This document shows positions 44,335 to 63,856 of a DNA stretch of 64,000 nt, in pieces (position 1 is the stretch's first letter; each line of letters starts with the position of its first letter). This stretch comes from Cyanophora paradoxa CCMP329 (Eukaryota > Plantae > Glaucophyta): positions 344,345 to 408,344 of the forward strand of contig QPMI01000064.1 in the NCBI GenBank assembly GCA_004431415.1, given 5' to 3'. The notes under the pieces are model-generated. The model had not been told where the DNA came from. It worked only from the letters and a program-made list of their open reading frames with translations, and ran no database searches. The translations under genes and the position numbers were made by a program.

Positions 44335-44575
44335 CGGTGTAACACTTCATAAATGCGCCAGAAATGAATGCGGTTTTGGACCCGGACCCCGATTATCATA
44401 GTATGTATATTAATGCATCACCAAATTAAATATTATAATGCGTTGAAGCGTTCAACGGTTTTGCCTGCTGTACGTGTAGGGGGGGTATACGTACATATAG
44501 TAGTTTCTTGCCGTATGGGACGGTATGGCCCGTATCGATATTAATGCGGTACCAAATTAATGCGTTTTGCCCCCG
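44335..44575 (-). mobile_element. Degenerate CCGTA-family MITE
   Basis: Shares ttttggacccggacccc and attaatgcggtaccaaattaatgcgttttgc with the reverse complement of the 45299 and 45951 copies. Confidence 0.65.
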
Positions 44576-45298: not shown

Positions 45299-45563
45299 CC
45301 GTAATGCATTTTATTAATGCGCGCACTTAATTAATGCGGCACCAAATTAATGCGCGCATGCGTTTTCCGCTGGCAAAACGCATTAATTTGGTACCGCATT
45401 ATTATCGAAACGCTAAGAAACTGCTGTATATGTACCCCCAACCGCAGCCAAAAGGCTTCAAAACGCATTATATATATTAATTTGGTGCCGCATTAATAGA
45501 CATTATAGGGGTCCGGGTCCAAAAACGCATTAATATCTGGCGCATTAATTAAGTGCATTACGG
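45299..45563 (+). mobile_element. CCGTA-family MITE (TA TSD)
   Basis: ta|ccgtaatgca...tgcattacgg|ta, with internal attaatgcg repeats. Confidence 0.85.
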
Positions 45564-45950
45564 TATATCGCGTGCTCGATCGAGCTCGACCGAGCCTCGA
45601 CGTCGACAGCGCATCATGGGCATGCGCGCGCATGCGCAGTGCGCACAGCCTGGGCGGCACATGTACTAATGATGTACAGCGGCTACAGCCTCGCGATCGA
45701 CTCCGGCGACTCGGCCGCCGGGCCAGCTGCGCATGCAGCCTGGCAGGCTGCAGCCTGCAGTTGGCGAGTCAATGGCGACGTTGGCCGCGGTTGGCCGGGC
45801 GTCGTCAACTTGGCGAGTCGCGAGTCGCGACTCGCGAGTCGCGATCTACCGGCGGGTACAGTAGCCGCTGACAGGCTAGCGCTGGTACCGTAGTACTACG
45901 GAGTCTACGGTACCGCCGGGCCGGTAGGGCTGTCGACGCCTGTCGTACTA

Positions 45951-46197
45951 CCGTAGAACACTTAAGTAATGCGCGCACTTAATTAATGCGCCCCCGAATT
46001 AATGCGTTTTCCAGCAGCAAAACGCATTAATTCGGGGGCGCATTAATATCGAAACGCTAAGAAACTGCATTATGTACCCCCCAACCGCGGCCAAAAAGCT
46101 TCAAAACGCATTAATTCGGGGGCGCATTATTAGCCATACTAGGGGTCCGGGTCCAAAAACGCACTAATATCGGGCGCATTAATTAAGTGTTCTACGG
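45951..46197 (+). mobile_element. CCGTA-family MITE (TA TSD), best-preserved copy
   Basis: Perfect 15-bp TIR ta|ccgtagaacacttaa...ttaagtgttctacgg|ta. Internal hairpin gcgcccccgaattaatgcgtttt...aaaacgcattaattcgggggcgc. Confidence 0.9.
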
Positions 46198-46444
46198 TAG
46201 TACTACGGTACGCGTAGGACGGATACATCATGGCATCATGGCATATACGGCGTTCGCGTTCATTGCAAAAAGCAGCACTCGAGCCGGCGTCGGCCCGGCG
46301 AGCTCGTACTGCTCAGTGCTGCAGCAGCAACCGTGAAACAGCACTGACTTTGAGCACTGCGGTGGCAGCATGCGTAGTCGTGTGCATCAGCGCGGAGACG
46401 ACGCGAACGCCTGTGAGCTCCCGCGCACGATCGCAAATCCCGCC

Positions 46445-48559
46445 ATGCCGAATGCCAACGCAACTCCAGCACGTAATAACACCCGGATATCGACGCGGAC
46501 GCTCAACGTTGACAAGTACATGCACAAGCTCCGGCAAATCTGCACAGGCGCGCATGCGCAGACGAGGGCAGCACTGCAAACTACGTCGAACCACTCTGCA
46601 GCTGCGTGCGAGCGCGATCCACGCGTACGCCGCATTTGTTCTCGGTCTGATTGCGCCGCTTGAATCTCCATCTGACGTTGTGTTGGCCATGGGCAGGACT
46701 GCGCATTCCGGCCGCCCTCGCCCTCGCCCTCGACCGGCGACGACTCCGACGTCGATCGCGATGTCATCTGCTTGGAGAGCAGCAGCAGCAGCGCTGGCAG
46801 CAGCCGTCGGACCAGCGTCGCGTCGGGTTCCGCCTGCACGGACAATGACAGCGATCGCGAGGGTCTGAGTCCCCTCCGGAGTGCCCGGAGCGATCCGAGC
46901 AGCAGCCTCCCGCGGCTCCCGACGGCGCCGGCTTCCGGATCCGCAGCAGCGCACGTGTCGAGGCTCAGCATTCCGAGGCCGAACTCGTGCCCAGAGATCG
47001 CTGTGGTGGATTCCTCGGGCTCGAAGCTCAAGTCCCCCAGATCCAGCGGGGCGGTGATGCCCCCCAAGTCCTTCGGGGAAGGCTTTTTGAAGCCTGCGTC
47101 AAGATCACTGTCAGCGGAGGGCACGCAGCCTGCACAGTCGCCTTCGGAGTGTGCCTGCCCAGATTCCAAGCAAGGGTCGATTGCCGCCACTTACTACAAC
47201 GAAAAGCACGACCAGCTGGAGAGTCTACTCTCGTGCGTCTCGAAGTCCCAAATAGTCGACCAGGTTCGAATATACTTAATTTCGAATTCGCTTCGAAGGA
47301 TTTTTTTTGACCGCGACGTCAGCTGTGGGACGCTGTGGTCGCTGTGGACACGACAATGGCCGCCAAACGGAAGGCGGCGCCATCCACGTTCTCCCTCCTG
47401 CGATCTCTGCCAAAGCCGTCCGCGTTGGAAGCTCCCGCGATCGAAGGCGCCCCCGGCCCGTCGCGGACCACCTCGGTCACGTACACGGCATACGAGGCGT
47501 TCCACATGGTTCGTGCTTTACATTTTTGATTTGCACACCCGCGGCCGCGCACACTCCGGAACTCCGTCTGATTTCAACTGAAATCCAACAGGCTCTGCAT
47601 CGCGCGATTTTCTCGCCAAGGGCGACATGGGATCTCGATGACGGCAAGAAACTGGCACAGGTGCGAATTTATTCTGATGAACTGAATGCTGATGATCACG
47701 AGCGGCAGTAATATTAATAAAGGGGCACACGTGCGCAGGCGAACTGGACCATCGACACGGACGCGTGCGGGGGCACGCAAATGTCGCGGGAAGCGTTCGA
47801 CAGGGCGGTGCTCAACGTGTCCAAGTTCTGGGCCGCGCAGCTCGAGAGCAGCGGGGTCGTCACCGGCATGCGGCTCCTGGCGGCAGACGCCGGCCTTCCG
47901 GCCGCGGCCGCCGCCTCGCGGGGCCTCGAGCTCGTCTTCCTCGCTTGCTTCACCGCGGTGCGAATCCGGATCTACGAGCTCGAGTCTGAAACTCTGCGCG
48001 CGCATCTCAAAACTGATCATGAACCGGTTTCAATTCTCAGGCCGTGACGAAATCGGCGTCGACGTCTCACGCTCGCGAGACCTCGTGCGCGAGCTCGAGC
48101 GCAAGCAACCCGGTGATCCGTTCTTGGTTCGGTGCGCTACAGCTACAGTTCGTTCGAGTGCAGCGGCATGTGCATTTCGCTGACTGCGATAAATTGTTTC
48201 GTGCCTCAGAGGTGAAGCTCGGCGTTTGCCAGCCGAAAGGAGTCATGTCCACGCTCCAGAAGCTGATCGAAGCCCGCCGCGCCCGCTGCGTGCGGTGCCG
48301 CGCCGGGTACCCGAACGTCAACACGCCCGGCCGCGGCCGCTCGAGCTCCAGCCTTGGGACTCCCGTCGCGCCCGTATGCGCCGAGAAAAGCTCGTCGGAA
48401 CCGTGCATGGAGCTCGAGCGGGCTGCATCCGCTCCCGTCTTGGCGTCCGCTGGCGCCGGCCCCTGCTCGCCCTCCGAGGGGCTCCTCCGCTTTGCCCTGC
48501 ACAACCGCATGGAGAAGATCCTTGAGCAGCGCCGCAGAGCTAGTTCTCAATCACTGTAG
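46445..48559 (+). CDS. Hypothetical multi-exon Ser-rich protein; last host gene before the viral insert
   Basis: Exons 46772-47263, ~47323-47508, ~47591-47661, ~47739-47957 and the final exon(s) to the stop at 48559, with GT-AG boundaries; start approximate. Confidence 0.55.
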
Positions 48560-48986
48560 CTGCGCATGCTTATTCGAATTCGCCCTTGTGGATATGCGCA
48601 TGCCTTGGCCAATGTCTCTAGCATGTGCAGTACGTACCTTTTTCCCCTAGCGAAGTATTGATTAAACTTTTGAAATTAATAGAAGTATTCTCCACAGTAT
48701 TTATATATCCGCGCATATATGCATTTCTTCTTCAATCAGCATGGGCAGTTCCTTCGATTCTTCCAGGGCGATCTACTAGCATGATATATATATTAGCCTA
48801 GTAGATTACGTATACGTCGATCGACTTGAGTTTAGTCTCCGTGCCACGGTGACCCGATGATGTTAAACTACTGTAGACTTCCTTTTTCTAGATCTAGCTA
48901 TAGTTGCGTTTTTTCGGAGATTCGCGATCGCAGTTGTGTGTTTAATTCGCAGATGTATACGTCTACGTATACGTATCCGCTATATA

Positions 48987-49489
48987 CCTCGGCCGCCCCC
49001 TCCAGCAGCGCCGGCCCCAGCCCCGTCCCCTTCTCCCTCGCCGACCGCAGCCCCGTCCCCGCCGCCTTCGCCGCGCCCGTCCCCGGCCCCGGCGCCGTCC
49101 TCTCCGCGATCCAGGGCTTCGGGGCCCAGCAGGAGGCCGAGCGGCAGGCGCTGGCGGCGCGCCAGGCGCGCGAGGCGGAGGAGCGGCGCCAGGGCCTCTG
49201 GGCCCAGCGCCTCCAGCGCACCCTCGCCTTCCGCGCCGAGCTGGAGGCGGGATTCCGCGCCCGCCAGATCTCCGGTGCGGAGGCCTCGGAGACTTGGCGG
49301 GCGTTCGAGGCGGAGACGGCGGGGCTGGCGAAGACCCTCGCCCAGCCCTACCGGCGCGTGGCCGTCCCGCAGTCCTACGCGCGGCGGGCGACGCTGGAGG
49401 CCTCGCGGGCGGAGATCGACGCGGCGGAGGAGCAGGCGGAGCGCGAGGAGGCCGAGGACAACGCGCGCTTCCGGCACCTCCACCACTGA
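48987..49489 (+). CDS. Viral hypothetical coiled-coil protein, 5'-truncated at the insert edge
   Basis: Intronless GC3-rich ORF ending ...EDNARFRHLHH*; the in-frame upstream part is palindromic host spacer. Confidence 0.55.
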
Positions 49490-49536
49490 GGCCTCGAGGC
49501 GGTATTTTTCTCAACCCCTTCCAATTCGGTCTCGCG

Positions 49537-49728
49537 ATGGCCCTCGCTGACAGCTATCCCCCGCATTACTCGCTAGGAGCCCTCGCCGCGACCCTCACCT
49601 GGCTCCTCGGCGGCACGCCCACGGCCTCGGCCGTCATCGGCGTGGGCTTCGGCTACGCCGCCAAGACCCTCTACGCCCCCGGCTCCGTCTCGATGGCGAC
49701 GGCCGGCATGCGCCCCGCCGGGCGTTAA
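49537..49728 (+). CDS. Viral small hydrophobic/membrane protein (63 aa)
   Basis: MALADSYPPHYSLGALAATLTWLLGG...VIGVGFGYAAK; atttttct motif upstream. Confidence 0.6.
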   Translation: MALADSYPPHYSLGALAATLTWLLGGTPTASAVIGVGFGYAAKTLYAPGSVSMATAGMRPAGR

Positions 49729-49835
49729 CTCTCCCTTTTCAAAGTTCCATTCCCCCCTTTCCCTTTTCAAAGTTGCGACGTCCTTTTGAGTCCGTTGGCA
49801 TTTAAATTTTCTTCATCGTCTGTACACGTCTAAAC

Positions 49836-50332
49836 ATGCCCAACGCCGTAGAGAAGCTGTTGTGTACGGTGTTCAAATCGGACTCGCGCTGCAGCAAGAT
49901 CGGCGAGGCTGCCAAGGGCGGGGGCGGGGCGAAGGCCGGCGGCGGGGCGGAGGGGCCTAAGATAAGGGGCGCGGACCCGGCGCCGCCGGCGCTAAAGTCG
50001 ATTAAGGCTGCGGGCAAGGGCCGCGGCGTCGGGCCCCTGCCCCTCGTGGCGATCGCCCCGGGCCAGCGCGAGGCGGCGCACGCGGCGACGGCGGCGCTGG
50101 CCTCGCAGCAGCAGAGGGAGGGGGCGCCGCGCCTGAGCGCCGGCCTCTGGTCGCAGCCTGCGCCCGCGCGCGAGTACGGCGTCAGCGCTTACTTCGACGG
50201 CGCGAACGAGCTGAGCCGCCAGGAGATCTGGCCTGGGAGGCGCGGCGCGCGGTCGACGGGCACCTGCCGTTGCTCGTGGCGCTCGGCGGCTCGCTCCTCA
50301 TGGTCTGGTACCTGCGCGGCTTCGCGATTTAG
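49836..50332 (+). CDS. Viral hypothetical protein with C-terminal TM segment (frameshift near 50235)
   Basis: The shifted frame gives ...HLPLLVALGGSLLMVWYLRGFAI*. Confidence 0.55.
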
Positions 50333-50361
50333 ATAGATTTTCGAAGCGCTAGCTAGTAGAG

Positions 50362-50688
50362 ATGAGCTGGCTCGACGCGCTGCTCACCAAGACCTTTGGG
50401 CCCAAGGGCGCGCCGCGGCTGCAGTTCGGTGAGCTCAACGCCGCGATCGGCGCCACAGTCGAGATGAAGAACCGCGAGAACGTGCTGCGCGGCGACGGAG
50501 GCGCGTGGGCGGACATTGCGGCGGGCGCGCTGGGCTCCGCACTCACCGCACCGGGCAAGGCGGGCCGCGCGCTCACGGACGTGGCCGAGCGCTTCTGGCA
50601 CTGGCTCAAGGTTGCCGTGGTCATCGCCGCAGCGGTTGTGGCGGGTCTCCTGGTGCTCGAGGCTCGCGCGCTATTTTCTAAACGCTAG
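50362..50688 (+). CDS. Viral membrane protein (108 aa)
   Basis: Intact ORF with C-terminal WLKVAVVIAAAVVAGLLVL. Confidence 0.7.
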   Translation: MSWLDALLTKTFGPKGAPRLQFGELNAAIGATVEMKNRENVLRGDGGAWADIAAGALGSALTAPGKAGRALTDVAERFWHWLKVAVVIAAAVVAGLLVLEARALFSKR

Positions 50689-50704
50689 GTAAAGCGAGCG
50701 AACC

Positions 50705-51106
50705 ATGCCCCGCGGCGGCTCTTCCCCCGTGTCTCCTTCGCTGAGAACGAAGTCGCCGCTACCCCCTGGAGCCCGGCGTCAAGCTGGAGCGCGCGAACGC
50801 AGTCTCCGTCAAGAAGGCCAAGCGCGCGCTGGTTCTAGAAGTCCCAAGACCGCCTCGCAGTTCCTTCCCACGTCCGAGTACGACGGCACGGAAGATACGG
50901 AGAAGGTTGCATTCAACAAGCGCAAGACGTACAAGGCGATACGCGAGGGCCAGCTGCTGCCCACGGACGCGGTTCCCGGGCTGCCGGGCACCACGGCCGG
51001 CGAGCTGCTCGTGCGCAACCTGCGCCTGCAGTACGTCTCCCGCCTCCGCCGCTCCAAGGCCAAGAAGGCGCGCCTGGACTCGGGCGATAGCAGCTCTAGC
51101 TCGTAG
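50705..51106 (+). CDS. Viral basic hypothetical protein (133 aa)
   Basis: Intact ORF with attttcta at 50673-50680. Confidence 0.6.
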   Translation: MPRGGSSPVSPSLRTKSPLPPGARRQAGARERSLRQEGQARAGSRSPKTASQFLPTSEYDGTEDTEKVAFNKRKTYKAIREGQLLPTDAVPGLPGTTAGELLVRNLRLQYVSRLRRSKAKKARLDSGDSSSSS

Positions 51107-51122
51107 GGCTCTGTACTCAATA

Positions 51123-51406
51123 CTACCAGTTCCTGTTCCTATCCCAGAGCACGACTCGGGTAAAGGGCACGGTCATAGCGAACATGAACTCGGCAAACTT
51201 GGAGAAGTTCATGAGGGTCCTAGGCGCGGGTCCTCCCAGTAGATAGCTTCGCGCAGGGACTCGTAGATGCGCATGAGGGAGCGCTCGTTCTCGGTCGCGA
51301 AGGCGTCGGAGGGCTCGTCGGGATCCGGATCCGAGAGCTCCGAGTACTCGTCCGAGCTGCCAGCGCTCTCGACGCCTGCGGCCGGGTCGGGCGAGGGGTC
51401 AGCCAT
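51123..51406 (-). CDS. Viral small acidic protein (frameshifted)
   Basis: MADPSP...ENERSLMRIYESLREAIYWED, continuing in another frame as TLMNFSKFAEFMFAMT. Confidence 0.55.
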
Positions 51407-51432
51407 TCTTTGCTGGTAGAAGGGCTAGAAAA

Positions 51433-51774
51433 TCACGGGCGCCGGTACTCCATCGAGTCGCCGCGCCAGTACTTGTTGCCGGAGGCGAGCAGCTTCATCG
51501 GCTCGCCCGTCGAGTCGTGCGTCCAGGCCTCGCCCGTCCAGACGGCCGTGCCGCCGTCCTCTAGCTTGAGGCGGTGGCCCGCCTCGAGCCGATCGCCGTT
51601 GAGCATGCGGCCGGCCATGAGCGCCAGGTCCCACTCGGTGAGGCCGCGCTGCTCTTCGGGGGTGAGGCCGCGCTCGACGCGCTCGGGCTGGCGCGCCTCG
51701 CGCTCCATGCGGCTGAGGCCCACCAGGAAGAAGATCGGCAGCGCAAAGGCCATGAGATCTAGCAGGGCCTCCAT
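51433..51774 (-). CDS. Viral protein with N-terminal membrane anchor
   Basis: Intact ORF beginning MEALLDLMAFALPIFFLVGLS. Confidence 0.65.
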   Translation of the reverse strand: MEALLDLMAFALPIFFLVGLSRMEREARQPERVERGLTPEEQRGLTEWDLALMAGRMLNGDRLEAGHRLKLEDGGTAVWTGEAWTHDSTGEPMKLLASGNKYWRGDSMEYRRP

Positions 51775-51783
51775 TGGCAAGAC

Positions 51784-52077
51784 TTAGAAAAGGTTCCGGG
51801 CCAGGCCCGAGAGCTGCGGGCCCAGGCGCCGGGCGGCGTAGTAGAGCGCGGCGGCCGCGGCGGCCAGGATCAGAAGGCGCGGCGGGCCGCGCGCGGGCTC
51901 CTCCAGGGTCAAGTCCACGGTCTCTGGCTCGCGGGCCGGCGTCGCCAGGATCTCGGGCTCGGAGCTAAGGGACTTGGGCCCGCGGCGGCGGCGCTGCTTG
52001 GGGGCGGAGGCGGCGGCGGCGGCGGAGAGAAGGTCCTCGGGCTCCTGCTTGATACCTGCGCAGTCAGTAAAGTCCAT
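51784..52077 (-). CDS. Viral protein with C-terminal hydrophobic segment (97 aa)
   Basis: Intact ORF containing RLLILAAAAAALYYAARR. Confidence 0.6.
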   Translation of the reverse strand: MDFTDCAGIKQEPEDLLSAAAAASAPKQRRRRGPKSLSSEPEILATPAREPETVDLTLEEPARGPPRLLILAAAAAALYYAARRLGPQLSGLARNLF

Positions 52078-52761
52078 GCTTGCTGGGTACCTCGGAAAAT
52101 TGTGGGAGGTGCCCGGCGGCTGCGAACGTAGGATGGGGGGAGAAGTGACGCGGACGCGAATACGTCATAGTCGAATACGTCATAGTCCAAAACCTGGACT
52201 CGGACTCGGCCCGGGCCCTGGGAGGGGGGTACATGTTATGTCCAAATGTCCAAATGTCCAAATGTCCAAATGTCCAATTGAAAGGTTGCGGAGGTTGCGG
52301 ACGCGTCACAAATACGTCATAGTCGAATACGTCATAGTCCAAAACCTGGACTTGGGACCTGGGCCCAGACTCTCGCCAAGTTTCAAATAATAATACTGTA
52401 CCCTGTTATCTGCAAGCTTATCTTATCGTTATCGTGTCACCTATCCTATCCCGATCCTATCGCTATCCTTTCGCGATCGCTTGACTACACTATTGCATTC
52501 ATTGCTTTTGAATGTAGTTAATGTCATAGCAACTTGAACATGATGTCATGATGATTTCAAGTTAAATACCGGGGTACGGTGTTTTTGTTCAAGTCTCTTT
52601 TTTTTACCGGCAGGGCCGGGCCGAGTCCCGAGTCCAGGTTTTGGACTATGACGTATTCGACTATGACGTATTTGTGACGCGTCCGCAACCTCCGCAACCT
52701 TTCAGTTAATTAATTAAGCACTGGGCTAGCGCTAGGCTAGCTAGATATCGATACCAGCTAG

Positions 52762-53190
52762 CTAGCTCAGCTCTACCCTGCCCAAGTTGATGGTATCTAG
52801 CAGCGCCTGCTCCTCTAAGTCTGCACCGCCTCCTCCTAGCGCTAGCGCTAGCTCGATACCGCCTCCAGACTTGATCTCCCTTGGCTTCAGCCACCGAAGG
52901 GGCTCAGGCCACCTCCTCCTGGTGAAGCCGGTATCGTTGCGCTTGTCCAGCTTGAGGTAGCGGTAGGGCGCCGGCGCCGGCCAGTCGGGCCTGTGGCTGC
53001 TGGCCTCCTTGGCTATGTCCTTGGGCCTACGCGGAAGCAGGTCGGCCTTGGCCTTGGCCTTCTGCAGAGGGCCCAGCGCCTTGAACTTCGGTGCCTTCGT
53101 CGCCGGCAGGGCCTTCGGCTGAGGCTTCGGTGCCTTCTGCGCCTTCGTCTTCGGCTGCGGCTGCGGCTTTAGCTGCTTCGATTTCGGCAT
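52762..53190 (-). CDS. Viral Lys/Pro-rich basic protein (overlaps next ORF)
   Basis: 142-aa ORF MPKSKQLKPQPQPKTKAQKAPK...; its 3' end is invaded by ctag-rich sequence. Confidence 0.4.
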   Translation of the reverse strand: MPKSKQLKPQPQPKTKAQKAPKPQPKALPATKAPKFKALGPLQKAKAKADLLPRRPKDIAKEASSHRPDWPAPAPYRYLKLDKRNDTGFTRRRWPEPLRWLKPREIKSGGGIELALALGGGGADLEEQALLDTINLGRVELS

Positions 53191-53428
53191 ACTTCTTGCT
53201 CATAAATGAGAAAAGCGCCTCGAAGTCGGCTTTTATCTCCTCCTTGGTCCAGGATGTCATCTGAGTCGGGTCACCTGAGAACGGCGCATCGAACGCCACG
53301 TGGAGCGATTTGCAGGCCTGAGCTATCATTGGCTCCGGCCAGGCCAGCTCGATCAGCTGAAGGTAGATACTGAGGGCCTTGTCGAGCTTGGCGCCCTGGG
53401 AGACTAGCTGGGAGATGGCGGGCTCCAT
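53027..53428 (-). CDS. Viral hypothetical protein (133 aa)
   Basis: Intact ORF with attttct upstream. Confidence 0.6.
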   Translation of the reverse strand: MEPAISQLVSQGAKLDKALSIYLQLIELAWPEPMIAQACKSLHVAFDAPFSGDPTQMTSWTKEEIKADFEALFSFMSKKYAEIEAAKAAAAAEDEGAEGTEASAEGPAGDEGTEVQGAGPSAEGQGQGRPASA

Positions 53429-53678
53429 GGTACTGGATTAAGCAGCTAGCGGGGTTCAGAAAATGGCGCCAAGTCCGAGCTTATTTTTTACCGGCGGGGC
53501 CTGGGCCGAGTCCCGAGTCCAGGTTTTGGACTATGACGTATTCGACTATGACGTATTCGCGTCCGCGTCACTTCCCCCCCTCTTCAGGTGAGCGCTCACC
53601 TGACCCTCACCTGAACGGCCTCAAAACCGCAGCCGCGCCGCGCCCTCGCTCACACTTCACAGCCAAGAGAAATCAAGA

Positions 53679-53967
53679 ATGTGCGCCCCAAGTACGAGAC
53701 CTGCTGCCTGACCTTCGGCATCTTCGAGTACGAGGCCATGGACGAGGATCTCGACGAGAACGGCGAGATCTGCTTCAACTACTGCAGGCTGCTGCGCAAC
53801 ATCTCGCTGGAGTGCCGCAAGGGCGACTGCTTCCAGCACATCATGCTCAATCCGCCAAGAACGAGATCACCCTGTACGCCGTCGCCAGCCCCAGCGCCAG
53901 ATTTAGACTCTCGAATATTCGCGTAGCCGTGATTGAGGCTCTCCCCCTCCCCAGTGAGACGAATTGA
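53679..53967 (+). CDS. Viral small Cys-containing protein (frameshifted)
   Basis: Pieces PKYETCCLTFGIFEYEAMDEDLDENGEICFNYCRLL and AKNEITLYAVAS lie in adjacent frames. Confidence 0.5.
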
Positions 53968-54081
53968 ACACGTGTTTTACCTGAATCACCTGAGCGCTCA
54001 CCCGAGGTCAGCCTGAAGTCAGGTGGGGCGGCCTTAAATATTTTCTAGCGCTAGGCTGATCGCACACTAAGCTCAGACAAC

Positions 54082-54875
54082 ATGGCCACCGTCCGCAACG
54101 CCACCGAGATCGACCCCGCCAAGCTCGCCTTCGAAATCGATGCCAACGGCCGCATCAAGGCCAAGTACGACGGCCTGCAGGGCCTCATGATGTACGCGCC
54201 GCCCATGGTCACGATCAACCCGTGCATCAACACCGAGCAAGGCAAGGCGTGGAGCGACGAGAAGAAGGCCTTCGTCATGGAAGAAAACGGCGGATTTTAC
54301 ACGCTGGACCTCACCGATCTCAGCGCCGTCGACGGCCAGACGAACCCAGCCGCGGACGAGTTCCTCAAGCTGCTGGAGGCCCTGGACGCGAAATTCTGCG
54401 AGTTCGTGCAGCAGAACCAGGCCAAGCTCAAGGTCTCGCCCGGGCGCGCCCTCTCCAAGGATCAGATCTCGGTGCTGCAGACGCCCAGCGTGCGCATCAA
54501 GGTCGACAAGGAGTCGGGCCAGGCCTTCTACAAGTACCTCAACATGCGCATCCGCACGCAGACGATGGCGGGCAAGCGCAAGACGATCCCAGTCGTCGAC
54601 ATGTCCAACTACCTCATCACCGAGCGCGCCACCATCGGCACCGGAGACCTGGTGGCGGCCCTCGTTAAAATCGACACCGCCTACGCCATCCCGAGGGCAA
54701 GTTCGGCCTCAAGTGGTCCTTCCTCGCCGTGCAGCAGTGCAAGGTCGGCGCCTTTCGCTTCGCCGGCCGCACGCCCGAGCTGGCCTTCAAGCCCTACGAC
54801 AACGAGGCCGATTTCGAGCCCTACCTAAACCCCGAGTCTATGTACACCACCCCATGCAGTAGTTTAGACGAATAA
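54082..54875 (+). CDS. Viral single-stranded DNA-binding protein (OB-fold, DUF2738/T7 gp2.5-like NCLDV SSB); frameshift near 54692
   Basis: FYTLDL...EFLKLLEALDAKFCEFVQQN...GDLVAALVKIDTAYAI, then shifted GKFGLKWSFLAVQQCK and an acidic/aromatic tail. This is the typical NCLDV SSB layout. Confidence 0.75.
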
Positions 54876-54916
54876 ATTGTAAATTCTCTGGTGCAATTGA
54901 TTACAAGCGTTTACAA

Positions 54917-55715
54917 TCAGAGGCCGTTGAACTTGCCGCCCACCGCCCTGGGCTCCGCCGCCGTCGAGGCCGCCGCCTCCGTCACCTCCTTCATCATCTC
55001 CGGGTTCGCGTTGGCCGCGTGCACCGCCAGCACCGTCTGCACCAGGGCCATCCCCAGGCGCGCCTCGGGCCCCAGGGTCACGTAGCGCGAGTACTTAATC
55101 ACCAGCTCCTCTAAGATCGGCTGCACCTGGTCCATGGAAGAGAGCGTCGCCTGCCCGAGCCCGTCTAACTTCAGGCCGATCGGATCGTACGCTTTGTTAA
55201 GGTGCTCCAGCGAGTGCATGCCCGCGATCAGAAAGAGGCGCGCCGCCTCCAGCGAACCCCGCGTGCTCAGCTCGCGCTGAATTTCCTCGTACTCTTCCTT
55301 CAGCTCGTCCAGCGGCGTGGCGAGGCTCAGCTTCTTCGTGGACGTCAGCTCGCCCCGAACGAGCGCCTGTACTGCGCGATCTGCCGCAGAACCTGCTTCT
55401 TCTCGTCCACGTCCACCTGCGCCTCGTCGCGCGGCCTCTCCTGCAGGTCGATCCCCAGCGCCTTTTTCACGCTCTGCTCCTTCTTCTTCGTCATTTCGAT
55501 GTGCTCCTGCACGCTGAAGCTCGCGCCCTTGCTCGGCGCCGTCGGCGGCACCGTGGCCCGTCGCCCGGTAGCGACGTCTTGTCGGCCTTCGGCGCCTTCT
55601 CGCCTTTTCCTTGCCTTCCTTCGCGGGCGGCCCTTCTTCCGAGGCTGCGGGATCCCCACCGGGTTCGGCCCGTCCACGGCCAGCGCGTCGAAGCCCAGCA
55701 TCGCCGAGGGTCCAT
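54917..55715 (-). CDS. Conserved NCLDV-type protein (DUF5767-like), frameshifted
   Basis: LDELKEEYEEI...LEHLNKAYDPIGLKLDGLGQ...PILEELVIKYSRYVTLGPEARLGMALVQTVLAVHAAN resembles the LDG..EL..KY..PE.RL pattern of this family. Confidence 0.6.
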
Positions 55716-55749
55716 GGTTACGCTTGCCCTTAGAAATTTCCTCGGATTT

Positions 55750-56078
55750 TTACTCCGACGTCAGCTCGACGAAGAGCTCGATGTAAAGCCACAGTTTCTC
55801 GCGCAGCTCGGGCCCGCTCCCGTAGAAGAGCGAGCGCACGGCCGAGGCGTACTCCTGCGGCAGCTTCTCGAAAACTCCGTCGTCCCGCGCCTTAATTAAT
55901 TCGGCCTCCGCGTTGATGTGCCTCCTAAAGAGAACGATGACCGCCGTGGCGCCTATGCCGCGCAGCGACTGGATCTGCGCCCGCACCCCGGCTCCTTGGC
56001 CTCCGGCTCCAGCAGGTCGAGGAAGCGGCCCCAGCGCGCCTCGATCTGCTCGCCCAGCGTCGCCTCCGTCGCTGCCAT
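55750..56078 (-). CDS. Viral small helical protein (frameshifted)
   Basis: WGRFLDLL...ELIKARDDGVFEKL...REKLWLYIELFVEL; similar in pattern to small helical NCLDV proteins. Confidence 0.55.
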
Positions 56079-56092
56079 GTCGCTAAGGGGCT

Positions 56093-57209
56093 TTAGAAAT
56101 TAGCGGCCAGGGATGCCGCCGCCTTTTGGTACATTTCCGCCATGCGTGCGTTGGTTTCCCGTCGGATGTTCTTCTGTCTGTCCTGAGTCTCCACGACCAT
56201 GGCTTGGAATGCCTTTTGGATGTCGAACTGATCGTCGTTTCCATCCCTGCGACAGTACCCTCCTGTCGCACCTGGTTGAGAGCTTCGCGCTGATCCGAGG
56301 TTGTAAAGTCTTTCCCTACGCGATTGTTGGGGTTCACCACCCTCGGCAGCAGATTCTGGTCCGCATACGGCCATGCCGTCGGCAGCGCAGGGCCCCGCGT
56401 GCCTTGCTGGTCCATGAGCATTGCTCCGAAGGGATTGCCCTTGCTGAAGTCGACGTCGTTCCGTCCGTACGGCCTGTTGTGCTCGCTGCTGATGTTCGCC
56501 GTCTGCGCGTTGAACATGGGCGAGAGGTCGGGCGTGTAGCCGGCGCGGAAGCCGCCTTGCCGGCAGCATCGACGGGCCGTAGCGCCCGGCGGGCCCCAGC
56601 AGGTTCTCCTTCTCGATTCTTCCATCGTCTTGATCCAGCCGCGCTCGCGTGCCCACTTCATGACGAGATCGTCGTAGTTCATCGGGAAGAAAACCTTCTG
56701 GTACTTATCGAAACGCTGAATTTCGATATCCTGCTCGATCATGTTCGTAATTCGCTCGAGCAGCTCGGGGTAATATTCCTCGAGCATTTTAGCCACGCCG
56801 GGCTGCTTCAGGTCGAAGGCCGTCATGGCCCACTGGTCGAAATCGCGAATCATGATTTCCTTCCGCAGCGCGAACGCATTCTCGACGTCCTCTTCGTTGA
56901 TCTGGCGGTTGGGATAGGCATTCTGCAGCTGCTGCCGAATGCCCATCCGCATCAGCTTCTCCATCTGCGGGGTGTACTTCATCGCGGCAGGGTCTTCGTG
57001 GGAAGGGCCGTCAACCCGAGGCCCCGCGCCTGATCCTCCGGCGTGTAGATGTCCGCCTTGCCCGGATCTGTGACGTGCACCTCGGGTAGGATCGTGCCGG
57101 CGCATACTTCTCAATGATGCCGTCACCTCGCCCTTCAGGTCGTTCTCAGCGACTGGCGCTGCTTCTTAGAGCCCTCCCCGATGTCCATCATGGAATGGCC
57201 CTTCGTCAT
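56093..57209 (-). CDS. Viral hypothetical (possibly structural) protein downstream of MCP; frameshifted
   Basis: Core DFDQWAMTAFDLKQPGVAKMLEEYYPELLERITNMIEQDIEIQRFDKYQKVFFPMNYDDLVMKWARERGWI. Confidence 0.6.
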
Positions 57210-57299
57210 CGTGCCTCGGTTAGGATCCCAGTGGGAAAATTATTGGTTCACATCGGCGACCGAGGCTCGCCCCCTCTCACACTCTGGCTAGCTGGCAAT

Positions 57300-58736
57300 C
57301 TAATGGAAGCGGCGGTAGGCGCCGCCGTTGATGAAGCTGATCTCGTTGTAGTAGCGGCAGTAGATATCGGCGATCGCGTCGTCAGCGTCCCCGCCGTGGT
57401 GAGCGTGAGCTCGATCGTCTTGAAGGCGCCGAAGTCGAGGCCGCCGAACATCTTCGTGTCGTCTGCCACCTCGGTGCGAAGGGAATAGCGTAGATGAATT
57501 CGGTGCCGTACTGAGCGGAGGCGGCGGTTGCCGCGCCGTTCTGCACCGCTGGCATGATGTCGCTGTTGTTGTAATCCTGGGTGTCAAGGTGGTGATGGCG
57601 GTGTCGTTGCCCGACCACGGGTGCGGGTGAAGGGCATTGCGCAGCGCATTAATGATGGAAACCTCGTTGGTACCGTACGTCGTATCGGCCGCCTCCGCCA
57701 GGGCCTTTGCGCCGTTGGCGTCGGTGTTGTCGGCGAAGCCCTGCAGCAGCTCGAGGTACTTGCGCGTGGGCACGTTGCGGTGCTCGCGGTTCGCGATGGC
57801 GGTGCGCAGGAAATGCGCGTCGTGAATAGAGCTGTCGAGCGCCTTGATGTTATCGCACTTGAGGTCGATTTTGCTCAAGGGCGGAACTTCCAGAAGTTGT
57901 ACCCCTGGTCCGTCGCGGCGCCGTCGCGTACGACAATTACCATCTCGTAGCAGACGCCAGTGAACGGCAGCGGAAGCTCGTGCCGCTCGTGAACTTTACG
58001 TTGTACGACTGCATGTACTTGCCAGCCCACGTGACGCTGTTGGGTGGAGGCTGAGCTCGTACGGGCTCACGTGGGTGTAGCGCAGCACGAGCTTCGAATC
58101 GAGGTCGGTGGTCGCCGTCAGGCCACTGTCGGTGTGGATTCCGGTGGTGACCCAGGTGGCCGTAACATCCTTGTGGCTCGCGTACGTGATCTGAATCTTG
58201 AGGTCGTTGCCCGAGCCGCGGAGCTTATAGAGGGCACGGCGAACTTGCGACCGTAACCGGTGAGAACGCGGAGCGGGATGTGAAGCACCTGCGCCCGCTG
58301 GGAGCGGCGCAGCAGAACCTGTGTCGCCCAGCACTCGTTGATCAGGTTGACCGTGTGCGGAACGGAACGATCCTGCTCGAGCTCGTCGTAGATGGCATCG
58401 TAGGCGCCCTCGTACTCGTGGACGAGCTGCGTGCCCACGAAAACCTTCACCTTCTTCAGCAGGATGAGGCCGGCCTTCGGGAGGTAAATCTTCCCGGAGG
58501 CCACCGCAGGCAGCTTAACCTTGAGCCAAATATCGTTGATGAGGGCGCCGAGTGCGGGATGATGAAATCGAGGTCTGACCGAAGCTGATGCCGCTCTGGA
58601 CGGGGCTGACCTCCAGCACCTCGTCCACGAAGGGCGTCGCGGTGTCGAAGGAGTCGTTCACGTGCACGGACGAGTTCGAGCTCAGGAGCGACTGCGCGAG
58701 GGCGGTGGTGGGGGCGGAGATGAGCGCGGAAGCCAT
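57300..58736 (-). CDS. Major capsid protein, NCLDV-type double jelly-roll (multiple frameshifts)
   Basis: Stitched motifs: ISFGQT...GALINDIWLKVKLP; GLILLKKVKVFVGTQLVHEYEGAYDAIYDEL; LHIPL; NDLKIQITY; FIYAIPFA...FGGLDFGAFKTIELTL; DIYCRYYNEISFINGG. About 480 codons. Confidence 0.9.
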
Positions 58737-58761
58737 GGTTTAGGGGTGCGTTGAGAAAATT

Positions 58762-60880
58762 TTACGAGGCACCGCCAGCCCGTTTCACTTGCTCGGCAAC
58801 CTTGTACAGGCTACGCGCGTCGAAGTCACCCCTCATGAACTTTCGAATTGCAATTTCGGGAACGGCCTCGATTATGTCGTTCGGCAAGTCCAGCAGCATC
58901 TTTGCTTTTATCACGAACCTCTTCTTCAATTCCGTCTTTTGGAACTCTTCCAGATTGTCGGCTCGCTGAACCTTCGCCACGAGCTCGTCGAACACGACTC
59001 TCACCTTTGCCGCTTTGAGGTCCTCCTCCATTTGGATGGCTTCACGTTCGGCAGTCTCGGGTGCATCTTCCATTTCGATTCGTTCGCGATGCTTGCCTCG
59101 AGTGCCTGCACAGCCTCATTCACAGCCTCTTCTTCCATCGCAACTGGCGGGCCCACCGCCGCCTCCAGTTCCTGGCGATGGTCTTCCCTTACGACGGCGC
59201 GGTACTGCTCCGCAGTGCCGCTGCGCCGCTTTGCGAGCACTTCTTCGCGGCCCTGTCCCAACCGTTCGCTGGCTATGTCCGTGCGCCTGTTGTAACCCTG
59301 CAGAAGCATGGATGCCGCGGTGCCCTGCTTCGAACCCCCCTTGCGTTTCTCTTTGGGTCGATGAGGTTCTCGATGGTGCGCGCGGTGACGAGGGCCGCTG
59401 ACCGGGATCGAAGAGCTGGGTACAGCCACCGCCGGGGGAGGGCAGCCCCGGCACTGGCAAAAGTTTGCGCGACGGCGTTGGCCGCAGCCGTGGCCGCCGC
59501 CTCGGCCGCTACCACCTCTGGCGGGCGCGAGGCCCCGCCTGCGGCTCGGGCGGGGCGGGGCGGGGGCTGCTGCTCCGCGGGGGCGCGGATGGCCTGGCCA
59601 CCGTCGCCGGGGCTGGAAGGGCCGGGCTGGGGCGCCAGTGGGGGCGTCTGCGGCGGCCTCGGTGGCGCGTCGCTGGGCCTCCCCCCTCCATCGCCCATAT
59701 CTACATCGCCGTCTCCGTTGCCAGGGGGCGGCCTTGGCCTGCGGGGGGCGCGAAAGGCCACGCTCGGCTTCTTGTACGGCAGCTCTGCCTGGATGAGCGC
59801 TTCCTTGGCGCCATTCCCGTTAAGGGCCTGAGCGCCGCGCTCATCGACGGCATCATTGTCGCGTTGCGTAAGTCGTGCACGCTGGTCCCTCTCCTTCTCT
59901 AAAATTCCGCTGAGCCGCGAGAGGTTCTTGGTCAGGCGTCGATCTCTGCACGTTCATCGCGCTGGCGACTCTCGTTGGGCCCGGGCCTTCATCGTCTTCG
60001 TCCGGCGGATCGGCCTGGCAAAGGTTTGTAGGTGTTCTTCTCCGAATAATCGGGCGGCTTGCCATCGGGGAATGCTGCGTGTGCGTAAATGCTAGTGGGT
60101 TTGAACTCTTCGCCATTGATGATGTACTTGTAATAATAGTAGCATCATCGAGGTTCATCGGGCCGAGCGTCTCAAGCGCTTCTTGCGCTTCAAGAATTCC
60201 GTGACTTGGTCTTCCTTCGACATGCAAAATTCACGTACGCCCGGAGAACAGTTAGATTCTTACCGTCCACGTCGCAGCGCCGGCCCCAGCGCTTTCGTTC
60301 CAGACGTGAAGGCAGATTGGCCCATGAGCCAAGCGCGGAAGCCCTCCTCGTACTCTCCGTCGATTTCCTGTTCCATGTCTTTGAACTTGTTGATGTAGTA
60401 CGCATTTGCAATTGCCTGCGCCTCTACCTCTGCAAGTTTATCGACTTTTGCCTATCCTCGATGCGACGCACGTCGTCGGACCGGTGCAAGGCCGTCTTTG
60501 CCATCTGCTGGAAGCGCGCGTACTTCTCGCTCTCAAAGGGCGTGATTGCGAGTCCCCGCCCCCGGGACTGCCAGCACGTTGCGGGGCGCGAAACGCGAGG
60601 CGAGCCCCTCATTTGCTCTTCTTAGGGTGGCCTTTGAAATTTATCGGTCTTGGCCTTGTCTTCCTTCCCGTCCTTCTTATCGCCCCCTTCTTCCCCTGCT
60701 TCGTCGGCGCATCGCCACGAATATTTCGCCGGGCGAGACGTCCTCGTACAGCGGCTTCGGCCCCTTTGGAAATTCGGCGGGCCCTTCAGCTTCTCCTTCG
60801 CCTCCTTCACCTCCGCCTTTGTCGGCTTCTCCTGTCCGTTCGTGGCGCCTTTTTCGCGGCTTCTTCTGCGTCTCCGGCAT
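58762..60880 (-). CDS. Large viral protein (heavily frameshifted; possibly 2-3 ORFs)
   Basis: ATG at 60880 with upstream motif. Fragments EGFRAWLMGQS, PGVREFC, LGPMNLDDA(Y)YYKYII, a Pro-rich linker and a coiled-coil C-terminus ending at 58762. Confidence 0.5.
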
Positions 60881-60892
60881 AGCTTAACCACG

Positions 60893-61215
60893 CCAGAAAA
60901 ATATGGTTCGCACCCCGTACGTCTCGGGGAACTGCCTCTCCCACCTGCGCATGGCCGCGTCCCTCTGGTCGTCGAGGCTACGGTAGGCGCGGCCCTCTGG
61001 CCCATCACGATTTGCCAGAGCCGTGCACGGACCTCGTCCTGCAGTCTGTACACCCAATCGCGAATGTTCTCGACGATATCCGTCGGCAGCGTGGCCAACC
61101 CCGCCTTCAGCTCAGGCACATCCGTGGATCCTCTTCGAGCGTCAGCTTTTGCATGCGAGCGCGCAGCATCTCAATTTGCGTATCAATTGGGCCCAGTAAG
61201 GACAGATCGAGACAT
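60893..61215 (-). CDS. Viral hypothetical protein (frameshifted)
   Basis: PIDTQIEMLRARMQKL...ELKAGLATLPTDIVENIRDWVYRL. Confidence 0.45.
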
Positions 61216-61226
61216 CGGGGTACGGA

Positions 61227-61487
61227 TCACTGAGAAATTACACTGGGTCGGAAGAGGAGGTACCCCACCAGGATCCCCGCTATAATCCAGAGGGCGACCA
61301 GTCGCGCTCCGCCGCCGCGCCCCCGTGGTGCTGCAGCAGCTGGGCGGCCCCCGGCCTGCTCAGCCCGTGCGTGCGTGGTCCGTGTAGTGCGGGCGCGGGA
61401 ACTGCTCCTGCGGCACGCGAGGCGGGTAGATGCCCTCGAAATGGTTGCGCATTGGTACATATCCCTATCGAACAGCAGGGAGGCCAT
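61227..61487 (-). CDS. Viral small protein with C-terminal TM helix
   Basis: ...LVALWIIAGILVGYLLFR; atttcta motif upstream. Confidence 0.55.
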   Translation of the reverse strand: MASLLFDRDMYQCATISRASTRLACRRSSSRARTTRTTHARAEQAGGRPAAAAPRGRGGGARLVALWIIAGILVGYLLFRPSVISQ

Positions 61488-61701
61488 TTCTTAATTTGGG
61501 AGGGACTTAGAAATACTGCCGTGAGCTCCCTGTCGCGGATCCTGCGAAAGTCGGCGAAGAGGCCGCGCGCGCAGCGCCTGCAGACGAGGCGGGCCGCCCG
61601 CCCACGCGCGCCACCGTGATCTCGTGCCGAACTGCAGGTGGCCCGGGAAGCAGGTGGGGGTAGTCGCAGACGAAGCAGTGGCAGGCAGTTGCGCCGCCGA
61701 A

Positions 61702-62082
61702 TCACTGCTGAAGAATCGCAGGCTCGCTCGCCGCCTTCTTCGGCGCGCGCTGGCGCTTCGGACTTGGCTCTCGGCGGGCGCCGAGTCGTCCGCCGCGCCG
61801 CCGTCTTCTTGACCCGGGGCGCCGCGGGGGCTTCGGACCGTAGGGCTGCCGGTGCCTGGCTCGAGCCGGCGCCGGGCCAGTGGCGTGGGCCACCTGCGGG
61901 CGCTGCGGCGGGGGCTGGTCTCCGGCCCCTCCTCGAGGACCCGGCGCATGAAGCGCGAGACCCGGCCGCTGCATTGCGTGCAGAGCCGACGGCCACCTGG
62001 CGGTTGTTCTTGCTGGTACGCACCTCGACGTTGGCGAGCTTGGTGTTGGAACGCACTTGAAGCAGTAGTGGGCGTGCTCCAT
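61702..62082 (-). CDS. Viral zinc-ribbon protein (DUF5679-like) with basic tail; frameshifted
   Basis: MEHAHYCFKC / RSNTKLANVEVRTSKNNRQVAVG / CTQCSGRVSRF fits the YCxKC...KNxR...GxCxxCG pattern. Confidence 0.7.
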   Translation of the reverse strand: MEHAHYCFKCVPTPSSPTSRCVPARTTARWPSALHAMQRPGLALHAPGPRGGAGDQPPPQRPQVAHATGPAPARARHRQPYGPKPPRRPGSRRRRRGGRLGARREPSPKRQRAPKKAASEPAILQQ

Positions 62083-62083
62083 G

Positions 62084-62246
62084 CTAGCTACGGATGTAGC
62101 AGCCTTCAGAAAAAAGTGCGTAGTAGCGGACGGCGCACCGGGCGCAGCAGACGTAGACGCCCGCTTGAGCACCCAGCCGCGCTTGGTCTGCGGCAGGCGG
62201 CAGATTTCGCAGCAGAGGGCCTGGGCTTGCGGCACGAGGATCCCAT
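62084..62246 (-). CDS. Viral small CxxC zinc-finger protein (frameshifted)
   Basis: CCEIC...VYVCCARC; atttcta motif at 62260-62266. Confidence 0.4.
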
Positions 62247-62265
62247 CTGGCGCGGGGCCTAGAAA

Positions 62266-62740
62266 TCACAATGGGATCACAACGGATTGAGGCGCGTAGA
62301 GGCGATTAAGTAGGCGTCGCAGAGTCGTCGAGCTTGCCGTTGCGATCCGCGATATCGGCAAGCTCGGCGGGTACAAGTCGCGGCACTTGTCCACGGCGCC
62401 GCGCTTGCGCTCCTTGTAGCTCGGGTTCGAGATCTTGAAGAAATGCTTGATGGCGCGCGGGCTCACGATCCGCGCACGCCCGTACAGGAGGCGTGGAGCG
62501 TGCACTCGATGCAGCGATTAATTCCCGTCCTCTGGCCCTCGATCGCGATCTGGTCGGGAAGCCGAACGCTATGGCCGCGAGTAACCTCAACCAGGCGCGC
62601 CACAAGGCGCCACAGCAGCGCGCAGACGGGAAGAGGGCGATCTTTTGCCAGTCGAGAATCTGGATTCCTTTGTCTGCGGATCGAATTCGATGAGCACAAG
62701 CGAAATTAATGACCCCCACATCCACGCCGAGAATCTTCAT
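62266..62740 (-). CDS. RuvC-like Holliday junction resolvase (poxvirus A22 family), frameshifted
   Basis: MKILGVDVGVINFAC, PDQIAIEGQ, IVSPRAIKHFF, YKERKRGAVDKC and KLDDSA supply all the catalytic motifs in successive frames. Confidence 0.9.
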
Positions 62741-62775
62741 TCCGAGTCACAAGAAAATCTGAATGAAGGGGTAAA

Positions 62776-63804
62776 ATGGCCAAGGACCCAAGAAGCCGAA
62801 GAAGCCGAAGGCGGCCAAGCCCCAGGCCGCCCAGCCCGCAGCGCAGCGCCCGCGGCCCCGCCCCCGCCGGCCAGGCACCGGCTCGGGCTCGGGCACCGCC
62901 CCGCCGCCGGCGCCAGCTGCGCGATGGTATGACGGAGGACGGCATGCAGCTCACGCCCGAGCAGGTCAACGCCTTCCTCGACAACTCGAAGACGGCGGCA
63001 TCGAGCGCATGGCCTGCCTGCCCGAACTTAAATGGTTCGACGTGAACACCGTGAAGTCCGACGCCACCGTCGTCTGTGTCGGCAAGCGGCGCACGGCAAG
63101 TCCTTCTTCCTTCGCGATCTCATGTTCAACCTCTCGGCACCTTCCCGGGGTATCGTAATCAGCCAGACCGATCGCCTGAACGGTACTGGAAGCAGTACAT
63201 ACCCCAGCGCTTCATCTGCCCAAGTACAACCCGGGCGTGCTCTTCCATTTATTCAGGAGACAGCAGGCGATCATGCAGCACAACAAGTCCGAAGACGTGC
63301 TGGCGGAAAGGAAGATCCCGTCGACCCGCGATTTTTCGTGCTGCTCGACGACGTGATTTCCGACGCGCGGCTGCGGTACGACGAGGCCCTCAACGAGCTG
63401 TTCGTGGCGGGGCGCCACTACAAAATCATGACCCTTATCACGACGCAGTATGCCAAGGGCATCAATCCCGTCCTGCCGCTCCAATACTGATCTGGCTGTC
63501 ATTTTCAAGTGCTCGCAGGCGATGCAGCGCGAGGCCCTCGCAAAGGAGTGGGGCGACATCATATCCCAGCGCGCCTTCTACTACCTGCCTCGATAAATAC
63601 ACGCAGGATAACCACTGCCTTATCATCGATTCTTCCAACAACTCTACGAACCCTCTGGACGTCCTTTACGTCTACAAGGCGAGGAGCCGCCCCCGTTCCG
63701 AATCGGATCCAAGGAGTACTGGAGGGCGAAACCGTCAACGGGGAAAATCTCGTGGGTCCGGACGACGGCACGGTGGACAAGACGCTCCTCGGCATGATAA
63801 ATAA
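62776..63804 (+). CDS. A32-like genome packaging ATPase (FtsK/HerA), frameshifted
   Basis: Walker A VVCVGKRRTGKSF, Walker B FFVLLDDV, ELFVAGRHYKIMTLITTQY, RSNTD, LDKYTQDNHCLIID and FRIGSKEYW. Confidence 0.95.
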
Positions 63805-63856
63805 TTTCAGGAAGCACGCGCCTCGCCTGATTTTTTCTGAGGCTACGTGCGTAACC

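Follow-up and report, generated by a model that had tools for sequence, protein, structure and literature searches.

Architecture of the repeat cluster

We have analyzed a stretch of 64,000 nucleotides from the glaucophyte Cyanophora paradoxa CCMP329 (assembly GCA_004431415.1, contig QPMI01000064.1, positions 344,345 to 408,344 of the forward strand), which we refer to as the window and number from its first letter. Its left 49 kb have the character of GC-rich eukaryotic DNA, and from ~48990 onwards there is a compact virus-like gene block, the visible part of a provirus. Inside this block, between two diverging genes and close to a gene of the single-stranded DNA-binding (SSB) type, lies a cluster of nested inverted repeats (52142–53574) that surrounds an AT-rich spacer and two open reading frames (ORFs). 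The structure and possible function of this cluster are the subject of what follows. Its components, and a palindrome next to it, are these:

52142–52203 (+): unit A, the outer left arm, consisting of an outer flank with TGACG, two 15-mers and the core
52238–52277 (+): tandem tract (ATGTCCAA)x5 in the interval between A and B
52279–52352 (+): unit B, the inner left arm
52353–52630: AT-rich spacer of 278 nt, with an imperfect inner stem (52392–52405/52570–52583), a TATC array (52407–52467) and a small hairpin (52531–52563); matched by short-read contigs with 0 substitutions
52631–52704 (-): unit B', the inner right arm, exact reverse complement of B
52762–53190 (-): enclosed ORF of 142 aa, Lys/Pro/Ala-rich, no Pfam match
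53027–53428 (-): enclosed ORF of 133 aa, no Pfam match and no usable Atlas match
53513–53574 (-): unit A', the outer right arm, exact reverse complement of A
53584–53603: perfect 20-nt palindrome directly outside A', with an 85% copy at 53986–54005, upstream of the SSB-type gene

The initial annotation of this DNA had described four units in the order A-B-spacer-B'-ORFs-A', each with two 15-mers, and we recovered this arrangement in full. The outer arms are perfect over 62 nt (60 had been given) and the inner ones over 74 nt; the fivefold tract does lie between A and B, and the AT-rich spacer with its repeated TATC measures 278 nt, close to the ~280 first estimated. A core of 42–45 nt that contains the two 15-mers is common to all four units. 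The 14-mer AATACGTCATAGTC occurs 8 times in the 64 kb, every time within A, B, B' or A', and TGACG paired at 15 nt occurs 4 times vs 0.09 expected, a number reached in 0 of 100 shuffles. Altogether the cluster contains 12 TGACG, i.e., 8.3 per kb vs ~2 elsewhere. The GC content of the spacer is 44% vs 63% for the viral region, and its 8 copies of TATC, all at 52407–52467, are all on the + strand. Beyond the perfect arms, B and B' remain imperfectly complementary for another ~55 nt of the spacer (score of the alignment 70 vs 40 ± 8, 0 of 500 shuffles, with a split point chosen by us), and for this reason the centre of the cluster can be described as a degenerate palindrome around a ~150-nt core. 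In addition, B' and A' are 74-nt direct repeats (at 89%) that bracket both enclosed ORFs, and a few inner-flank letters pair crosswise, A with B' and B with A', at ~2 informative sites.

The flanking genes point away from the cluster, and the - strand carries both enclosed ORFs. From A' to the start of the SSB-type gene, on the right, there are 508 nt, in agreement with the ~500 bp noted before; the divergence of the flanking genes had been noted as well. Folding of the cluster as a single strand predicts nested A/A' and B/B' stems, with B-spacer-B' predicted to form one long imperfect hairpin. The perfect arms are 278 and 1309 nt apart, and arms at such distances cannot extrude as a cruciform in duplex DNA. 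Both pairs could meet only as a single-strand panhandle, and the cruciform resolved by the encoded RuvC, as originally suggested, finds no support. A switch in GC skew had been recommended as a check; the sign does change near 53.5 kb but follows the gene strand, which makes it uninformative. An Rfam scan gave a single match, below threshold (E 0.37). Short-read contigs match several separate pieces of the cluster without substitutions, and none of them bridges a repeat core, so that the order of the pieces rests on the assembly.

Copies and position of the cluster

Sequencing depth was compared between host and viral contigs. A single-copy host contig at the left edge had a depth of 86 in run X1 (47400–49016) and of 34 in run X13 (47400–49105), and to the right of it depth rises into the thousands-fold range. 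The X1 contigs that match the type of this copy had depths of 1491 (50073–50571), 1406 (51866–51994), 1441 (the spacer) and 1581 (53375–53532). Since its depth equals that of the same-type flanking viral contigs, the spacer is carried 1:1 with the viral genes. Spacer and viral depth amount to ~17x single copy in X1 and 22x in X13, where depth varies more along the stretch; these ratios are rough, contig depth not being a copy count. A more divergent viral type reaches 5000–6800 in X1, and by X1 depth (~1450, 2800 and 5000–6800 vs 86) the provirus family, with markers on at least 47 contigs, is composed of at least two or three subfamilies. In the divergent subfamily, too, an A'-like sequence starts at this position, with loose ends at 53476 (X1, X4) and 53489 (X15); at the cluster its copies are known by these loose ends alone, their spacer giving no alignment at 80% likeness. 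Run X15, which may be an RNA data set, has contigs over several genes and hardly any over 52102–52686 and 53506–53622, a pattern to which we give no weight.

Bins over the arms had no depth excess over the flanking viral genes. No target-site duplication was found at A/A' or B/B', and the repeat units are absent from the 49 kb of host DNA within the window. Together with the 1:1 depth, these results support the cluster as a viral non-coding cis-element with iteron-like motifs that is present in other viral copies, and not as a host miniature inverted-repeat transposable element (MITE), the possibility that the initial annotation had set against its own proposal. An exact 30-mer of the unit had no match in the viral contig collection; SSB queries gave no locus in viral or metagenome contigs, the close-clade ATPase query gave none in metagenome contigs, and phage records gave no match.

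The order of genes on other contigs was read from the gene numbers in paralog names, on the at least 47 contigs with one or more markers. Among the matches listed, the left-side gene is 2–7 gene numbers from the SSB gene on all 18 contigs that have both, and it is located on the side away from the ATPase in 5 of 5. As the left genes neighbour the SSB gene on every informative contig, the cluster is internal in the integrated copies. On one EukProt contig (tig00020608) the gene number of the enclosed basic ORF lies past that of the SSB gene, which differs from the order in the window, and this may be a rearranged copy or a neighbouring fragment.

A candidate replication origin and its alternatives

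For the origin of a replicon of this kind, three things are required: binding sites in several copies, a core that can melt and a site for nicking. Such an origin is often a divergent promoter as well, as happens in circular Rep-encoding single-stranded DNA (CRESS) viruses, in herpes oriS and in the homologous regions (hrs) of baculoviruses. We estimate at about one half the probability that the cluster is the replication origin, and at the same time the divergent control region, of a probably circular mriyavirus-like genome. The cluster unites repeated binding sites and a meltable core with diverging flanks, an SSB-type neighbour and a motif unlike the TTTTC type. Of the two options contained in the first proposal (an origin, or fused genome termini), the viral iteron-bearing cis-element stands, with the origin as its best reading, and the head-to-head junction of terminal repeats is not supported. 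Mriyaviruses have no polymerases, encode an HUH endonuclease and a helicase, and have been predicted to use rolling-circle replication in the nucleus (PMC11253617). They include circular or terminally redundant contigs (PMC11253617, PMC13768754), and six of seven new Yaraviridae genomes were inferred to be circular (PMC13768754).

The following scheme, with its binding, nicking and flipping and with the part given to the RuvC-like gene, is inferred. The paired 15-mers on the two sides would be bound by a sequence-specific protein, either the HUH initiator of the virus or a host factor that binds TGACG and recruits this initiator. The AT-rich core would melt and receive a nick, and helicase and SSB would power synthesis by the host polymerase, in rolling-circle or strand-displacement mode. 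On the displaced strand, a nested panhandle is predicted to form from A/A' and B/B'; such a structure could preserve the identity within each pair and would let the inner segments change orientation. Replication or recombination junctions, rather than an extruded cruciform, would be the substrate of the RuvC-like enzyme, and the two enclosed ORFs have the appearance of cargo trapped between B' and A' as direct repeats. A bolder version, which we regard as rather doubtful, would see in the cluster an origin nicked by HUH that is also the unit-length junction, and the first to be located in the class, with arms kept identical by replication-linked flipping (genome isomers) and with tens of integrated copies in a culturable glaucophyte that would still have it unbroken and might excise and use it for replication.

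Free relatives of the provirus were searched for the same design. Counted with one filter for real and shuffled loci, inverted repeats that are perfect over ≥18 nt within 1.5 kb were present in 5 of 80 ATPase loci and in 2 of 12 HUH loci (7/92) vs 0 of 276 shuffles; of these seven, L078 is a region of generally repetitive character. An arm pair of 42–44 nt around one unrelated, non-conserved ORF between diverging genes, i.e., the layout of A and A', is common to L063 and L065. The layout of B and B' is found in L071, with two ~200-nt palindromes (4520–4721 and 11989–12199) that have tandem 7-mers in both arms and an AT-rich core, one of them abutting a long gene with a Walker A motif that we read as helicase-like. 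These palindromic units also bracket a 7-kb block with a gene order unlike that of other relatives. In L091 one left and two right iteron units stand beside a dinucleotide tract at the contig start, in L093 a simple-repeat tract plus repeats is internal (1870–2250), and in L075 there are five copies of an 11-mer, of which three surround a 35-bp hairpin and the other two lie just upstream of the HUH gene. Motif scans with the units of L063/L065, L091 and L071 found paired matches in their own contigs only. The repeat design recurs in the class, and not at a fixed site. L077, L078 and L091 all start with a dinucleotide tract followed by inverted repeats, which may mark genome ends, integration sites or assembly breaks.

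Several results weigh against an origin. The other 85 of the 92 relative loci, all of them partial, are without such repeats, and those repeats that were found have no sequence in common with the ones of the window and no conserved position. At the slot of the L075 hairpin, no inverted repeat >10 nt occurs in the other loci whose flanking genes are the same (7 of 7). The L075 10-mer, found in 12 other loci (one further match, L095, is the same contig), may be a promoter motif. On the ATPase tree the loci with repeats do not group together (6 changes vs 6.3 when shuffled), and the clade of the window is far from every one of them. In the cluster no hairpin loop with a nonanucleotide of CRESS type was found, and in the window no HUH gene, where only 15 kb of the provirus are visible. 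An 8/9 match to nonanucleotide motifs at ~52388–52398 was rejected; it is located in a stem arm, not in a loop, and is likely due to chance in AT-rich DNA.

The cluster resembles known viral origins in design. The intergenic region of geminiviruses and circoviruses is an HUH rolling-circle origin, with which it shares tandem iterons and inverted repeats in a non-coding region between diverging genes, in a virus class that encodes an HUH initiator. It differs in having no short nonanucleotide stem-loop, a length of 1.4 kb, four nested units, two enclosed ORFs and a double-stranded DNA genome around it. Baculovirus hrs, herpes oriS and the inverted terminal repeat (ITR) of adenoviruses serve both as origin and as enhancer, and they similarly have palindromic or inverted protein-binding boxes around AT-rich DNA, with TGACG resembling the cAMP response element (CRE). 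Unlike them, this is a single cluster in the 15 kb seen and the initiator would be different; the likeness is one of design, for which no sequence homology is expected. The termini of rudiviruses, such as Sulfolobus islandicus rod-shaped virus (SIRV), and of poxviruses (PMC5062984) are comparable in the gene set of HUH Rep and Holliday junction resolvase and in an imperfect AT-rich palindrome.

This last comparison leads to the alternative that the cluster represents the ends of a linear genome, bearing terminal inverted repeats or hairpins, that became fused, either in a rudivirus-like junction or in a head-to-tail junction like the double-D of adeno-associated virus (AAV), and that a circular intermediate integrated elsewhere, leaving the junction inside the provirus. 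It would be compatible with an origin, the two not being mutually exclusive, and we consider it unlikely. The predicted hairpin of B-spacer-B' would suit it, as would the simple-repeat starts of L077, L078 and L091; a related provirus, Phaglo-G, is reported to have short repeats in tandem on its flanks (10.1101/2022.07.28.501842), SIRV has hairpin ends together with an HUH Rep and a Holliday junction resolvase (PMC5062984), and the protein to which the mriyavirus HUH comes closest is that of SIRV1 (PMC11253617). However, rudivirus and poxvirus junctions are perfectly palindromic, head-to-head or tail-to-tail, with ITRs of up to 2 kb (PMC5062984), whereas the cluster is flanked by different genes that are not mirror images, which argues against the head-to-head arrangement first proposed, and it is internal on the 18 contigs referred to above. 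Contig starts at simple repeats may be assembly breaks, given the internal tract of L093. The one opposite-strand joint seen in the spacer (52519/52571, run X13) would fit fused ends as well, but its depth of 47 is about that of a single copy and it is absent from the two other DNA-type runs, X1 and X4.

TGACG pairs resemble as-1/CRE-like bZIP sites, and the cluster could be just a duplicated enhancer or promoter block at which host bZIP factors drive diverging early genes, with no role in replication. The density of TGACG is in favor of this, and so are the distances of A (65 nt) and A' (~105 nt) to the starts of the diverging genes, the similar repeated motifs upstream of several genes in L075, L094 and L076 and the position of both L071 units between gene starts. 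On the other hand, B and B' face no gene start, promoters need neither 62–74-nt perfect inverted identity nor a degenerate palindromic core or a one-strand TATC array, and other viral genes have a different upstream motif of TTTTC type, so that we find this account improbable too. Even less credit can be given to nested non-autonomous elements with terminal inverted repeats (TIRs), i.e., a MITE (B..B') within a two-ORF element (A..A'), that would hitchhike in the virus. TIR transposons and MITEs do have short perfect inverted repeats around non-coding or cargo DNA, each pair here has perfect arms and its own outer flank, and the clusters of relatives vary in position and in some cases (L071, L093) mark a rearranged gene order. 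Against such elements stand the missing target-site duplications at either pair, the absence of depth excess over the viral genes and of any spread outside the virus into the 49 kb of host DNA, and a scan of 27 ORFs in which no transposase was found. A site-specific inversion switch, flipping the spacer or the two-ORF cassette to alter gene expression, is permitted by the geometry, and the few crosswise letters are what a past exchange within the core would leave (at ~2 informative sites), with tig00020608 as one contig of odd gene order. No recombinase was found in the window (the same 27 ORFs plus a profile scan), no arm-to-arm joint was seen, although contigs cannot bridge repeats of 42–74 nt, and a flip of A/A' does not explain the odd contig; we take the switch to be highly improbable. 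The nested order might finally be an artefact of an error-prone long-read assembly, as single-letter gaps vs short-read contigs occur at several frameshifts and no contig bridges a core. But in up to three runs contigs of similar depth match the separate pieces (left flank to A; B core, spacer and B'; B' outer flank to ORF; ORF to A') with no substitution, and the gene order is repeated on 18 contigs among the matches listed, which leaves an artefact with hardly any likelihood.

It has been proposed that, among living viruses, mriyaviruses are the closest relatives of the ancestor of giant viruses, and the prediction of rolling-circle replication has so far come from protein motifs alone. In the literature searched on the virus group and the host we found no description of an origin or of an internal inverted-repeat cluster for mriyaviruses; the terms "origin of replication" and "hairpin" are absent from the class paper as searched, whose Fig. 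2 legend lists ITR (PMC11253617). A defined 1.4-kb candidate with many copies in a cultured host makes the prediction directly testable, and C. paradoxa grows in axenic culture (PMC12344493). The cluster also bears on the colonisation of genomes by viruses without integrase (10.64898/2026.06.19.733378). The provirus itself is less new than the cluster, because there are earlier reports of methylated giant-virus elements in C. paradoxa (PMC12344493) and of regions related to Mriyaviricetes in the assembly of a glaucophyte (10.1101/2025.04.19.649669).

The surrounding provirus and other features of the window

The provirus and those of its genes that could be named are listed below, with E-values from Pfam or from hidden Markov models (HMMs) of our own.

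48990–64000: left part of a multi-copy mriyavirus-like provirus, broken within a viral gene at ~48990 and running off the right end of the window
51784–52077 (-): left diverging gene of 97 aa; 65 nt separate its start from arm A
53679–53967 (+): right diverging small gene, Cys-rich, frameshifted in the assembly, variable between copies
54082–54875 (+): SSB-type gene, homologous to the ATPase-adjacent gene of free gamadvirus-like contigs (own HMM, E 5.6e-19); fold evidence weak
54917–55749 (-): DUF5767 gene, common to free relatives
57100–58736 (-): possible major capsid gene, frameshifted, of marginal identity (3.7 bits vs a maximum of 2.8 among 300 shuffles), no direct HMM match
62266–62740 (-): RuvC/A22-like resolvase gene, frameshifted (Pfam Ydc2, E 0.018; own HMM, E 1.8e-4, weak)
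62776–63873 (+): A32-type packaging ATPase gene, frameshifted

The left edge is a break and not a natural end, since it falls inside a gene whose paralogs (P0208, P0210, P0213) have a longer N-terminus that is missing in this copy. The SSB-type gene had 22 matches, i.e., 20 in EukProt, one in ENA (88%) and one in Logan (71%); the listed EukProt paralogs are C. paradoxa gene models on at least 34 contigs. Its model has a pLDDT of 48, with Z-scores of 2.5 to T7 gp2.5 and 3.3 to CP312R of African swine fever virus, both weak, and sequence searches of Pfam, PHROGs and PDB gave no confirmation of an SSB function. The A32-type ATPase has 269 relatives, most of them with PF04665, and retrieves 80 IMG/VR loci at 40–52% identity. 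These relatives carry VLTF3, the capsid of nucleocytoplasmic large DNA viruses (NCLDV), YqaJ, A22 and HUH, the last often followed by a very long ORF, which is the gene set given for Gamadviridae (PMC11253617). From the related loci 17 profiles were built and run against the window. Five matched at E < 0.001 (SSB-type, DUF5767, RuvC-like and two unnamed genes), and in the same scan the capsid, VLTF3 and YqaJ profiles had no match.

The provirus thus appears mriyavirus-like by its gene content, with incomplete membership. Characters of the class are an A32-type packaging ATPase, a RuvC/A22-like resolvase, a double jelly-roll major capsid protein, an HUH endonuclease, VLTF2/VLTF3 and a helicase, in a genome of 35–45 kb that has no DNA polymerase, and for Gamadviridae a T7-like SSB of PEV_26 type is added; of the provirus, 15 kb can be seen here. 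The provirus is like the proposed Gamadviridae of the class Mriyaviricetes (PMC11253617) in the A32 ATPase, the RuvC-like, SSB-type and DUF5767 genes and two further common genes, and unlike them in its shuffled gene order, its marginal capsid, the lack of HUH, VLTF and a recognised helicase among the genes found in the window, and the long separate branch of its ATPase clade. This branch had a support of 100/100 in a tree of 25 rows, made of 22 of the 80 loci (picked for length and repeat content) and three close proteins. In ENA and Logan, seven proteins (P0266, P0281, P0287, P0295, P0299, P0304 and P0331) have a gamadvirus-type HUH domain behind long N-terminal regions, unlike the short viral protein, and are possibly domesticated; by eye, these N-terminal regions are candidates for FHA- or WWE-like pieces.

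A TTTTC-type motif was located ≤50 nt upstream of 10 of 12 viral gene starts vs a background of 8.7% (49836–62740; motif chosen post hoc), and is a candidate viral promoter. The small gene at 53679–53967 has clearly different versions between copies, and one high-depth X1 contig skips 53727–53960, which points to a variable slot beside the cluster. Many frameshifts of this copy coincide with single-letter gaps vs short-read contigs and are probably assembly errors, so that the provirus copies may be more intact than they look. CTAG-rich short palindromes, possibly terminators, were seen 3' of several gene ends (e.g., 52724–52778).

In the host part of the window there is a family of nested inverted repeats (45315–46203, 44542–44571 and 4124–4186), MITE-like and in a low-GC stretch, that is unrelated to the viral units. 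A direct duplication of 293 nt + 48 nt with tandem repeated motifs links the host DNA at 7338–7776 and 14761–15213.

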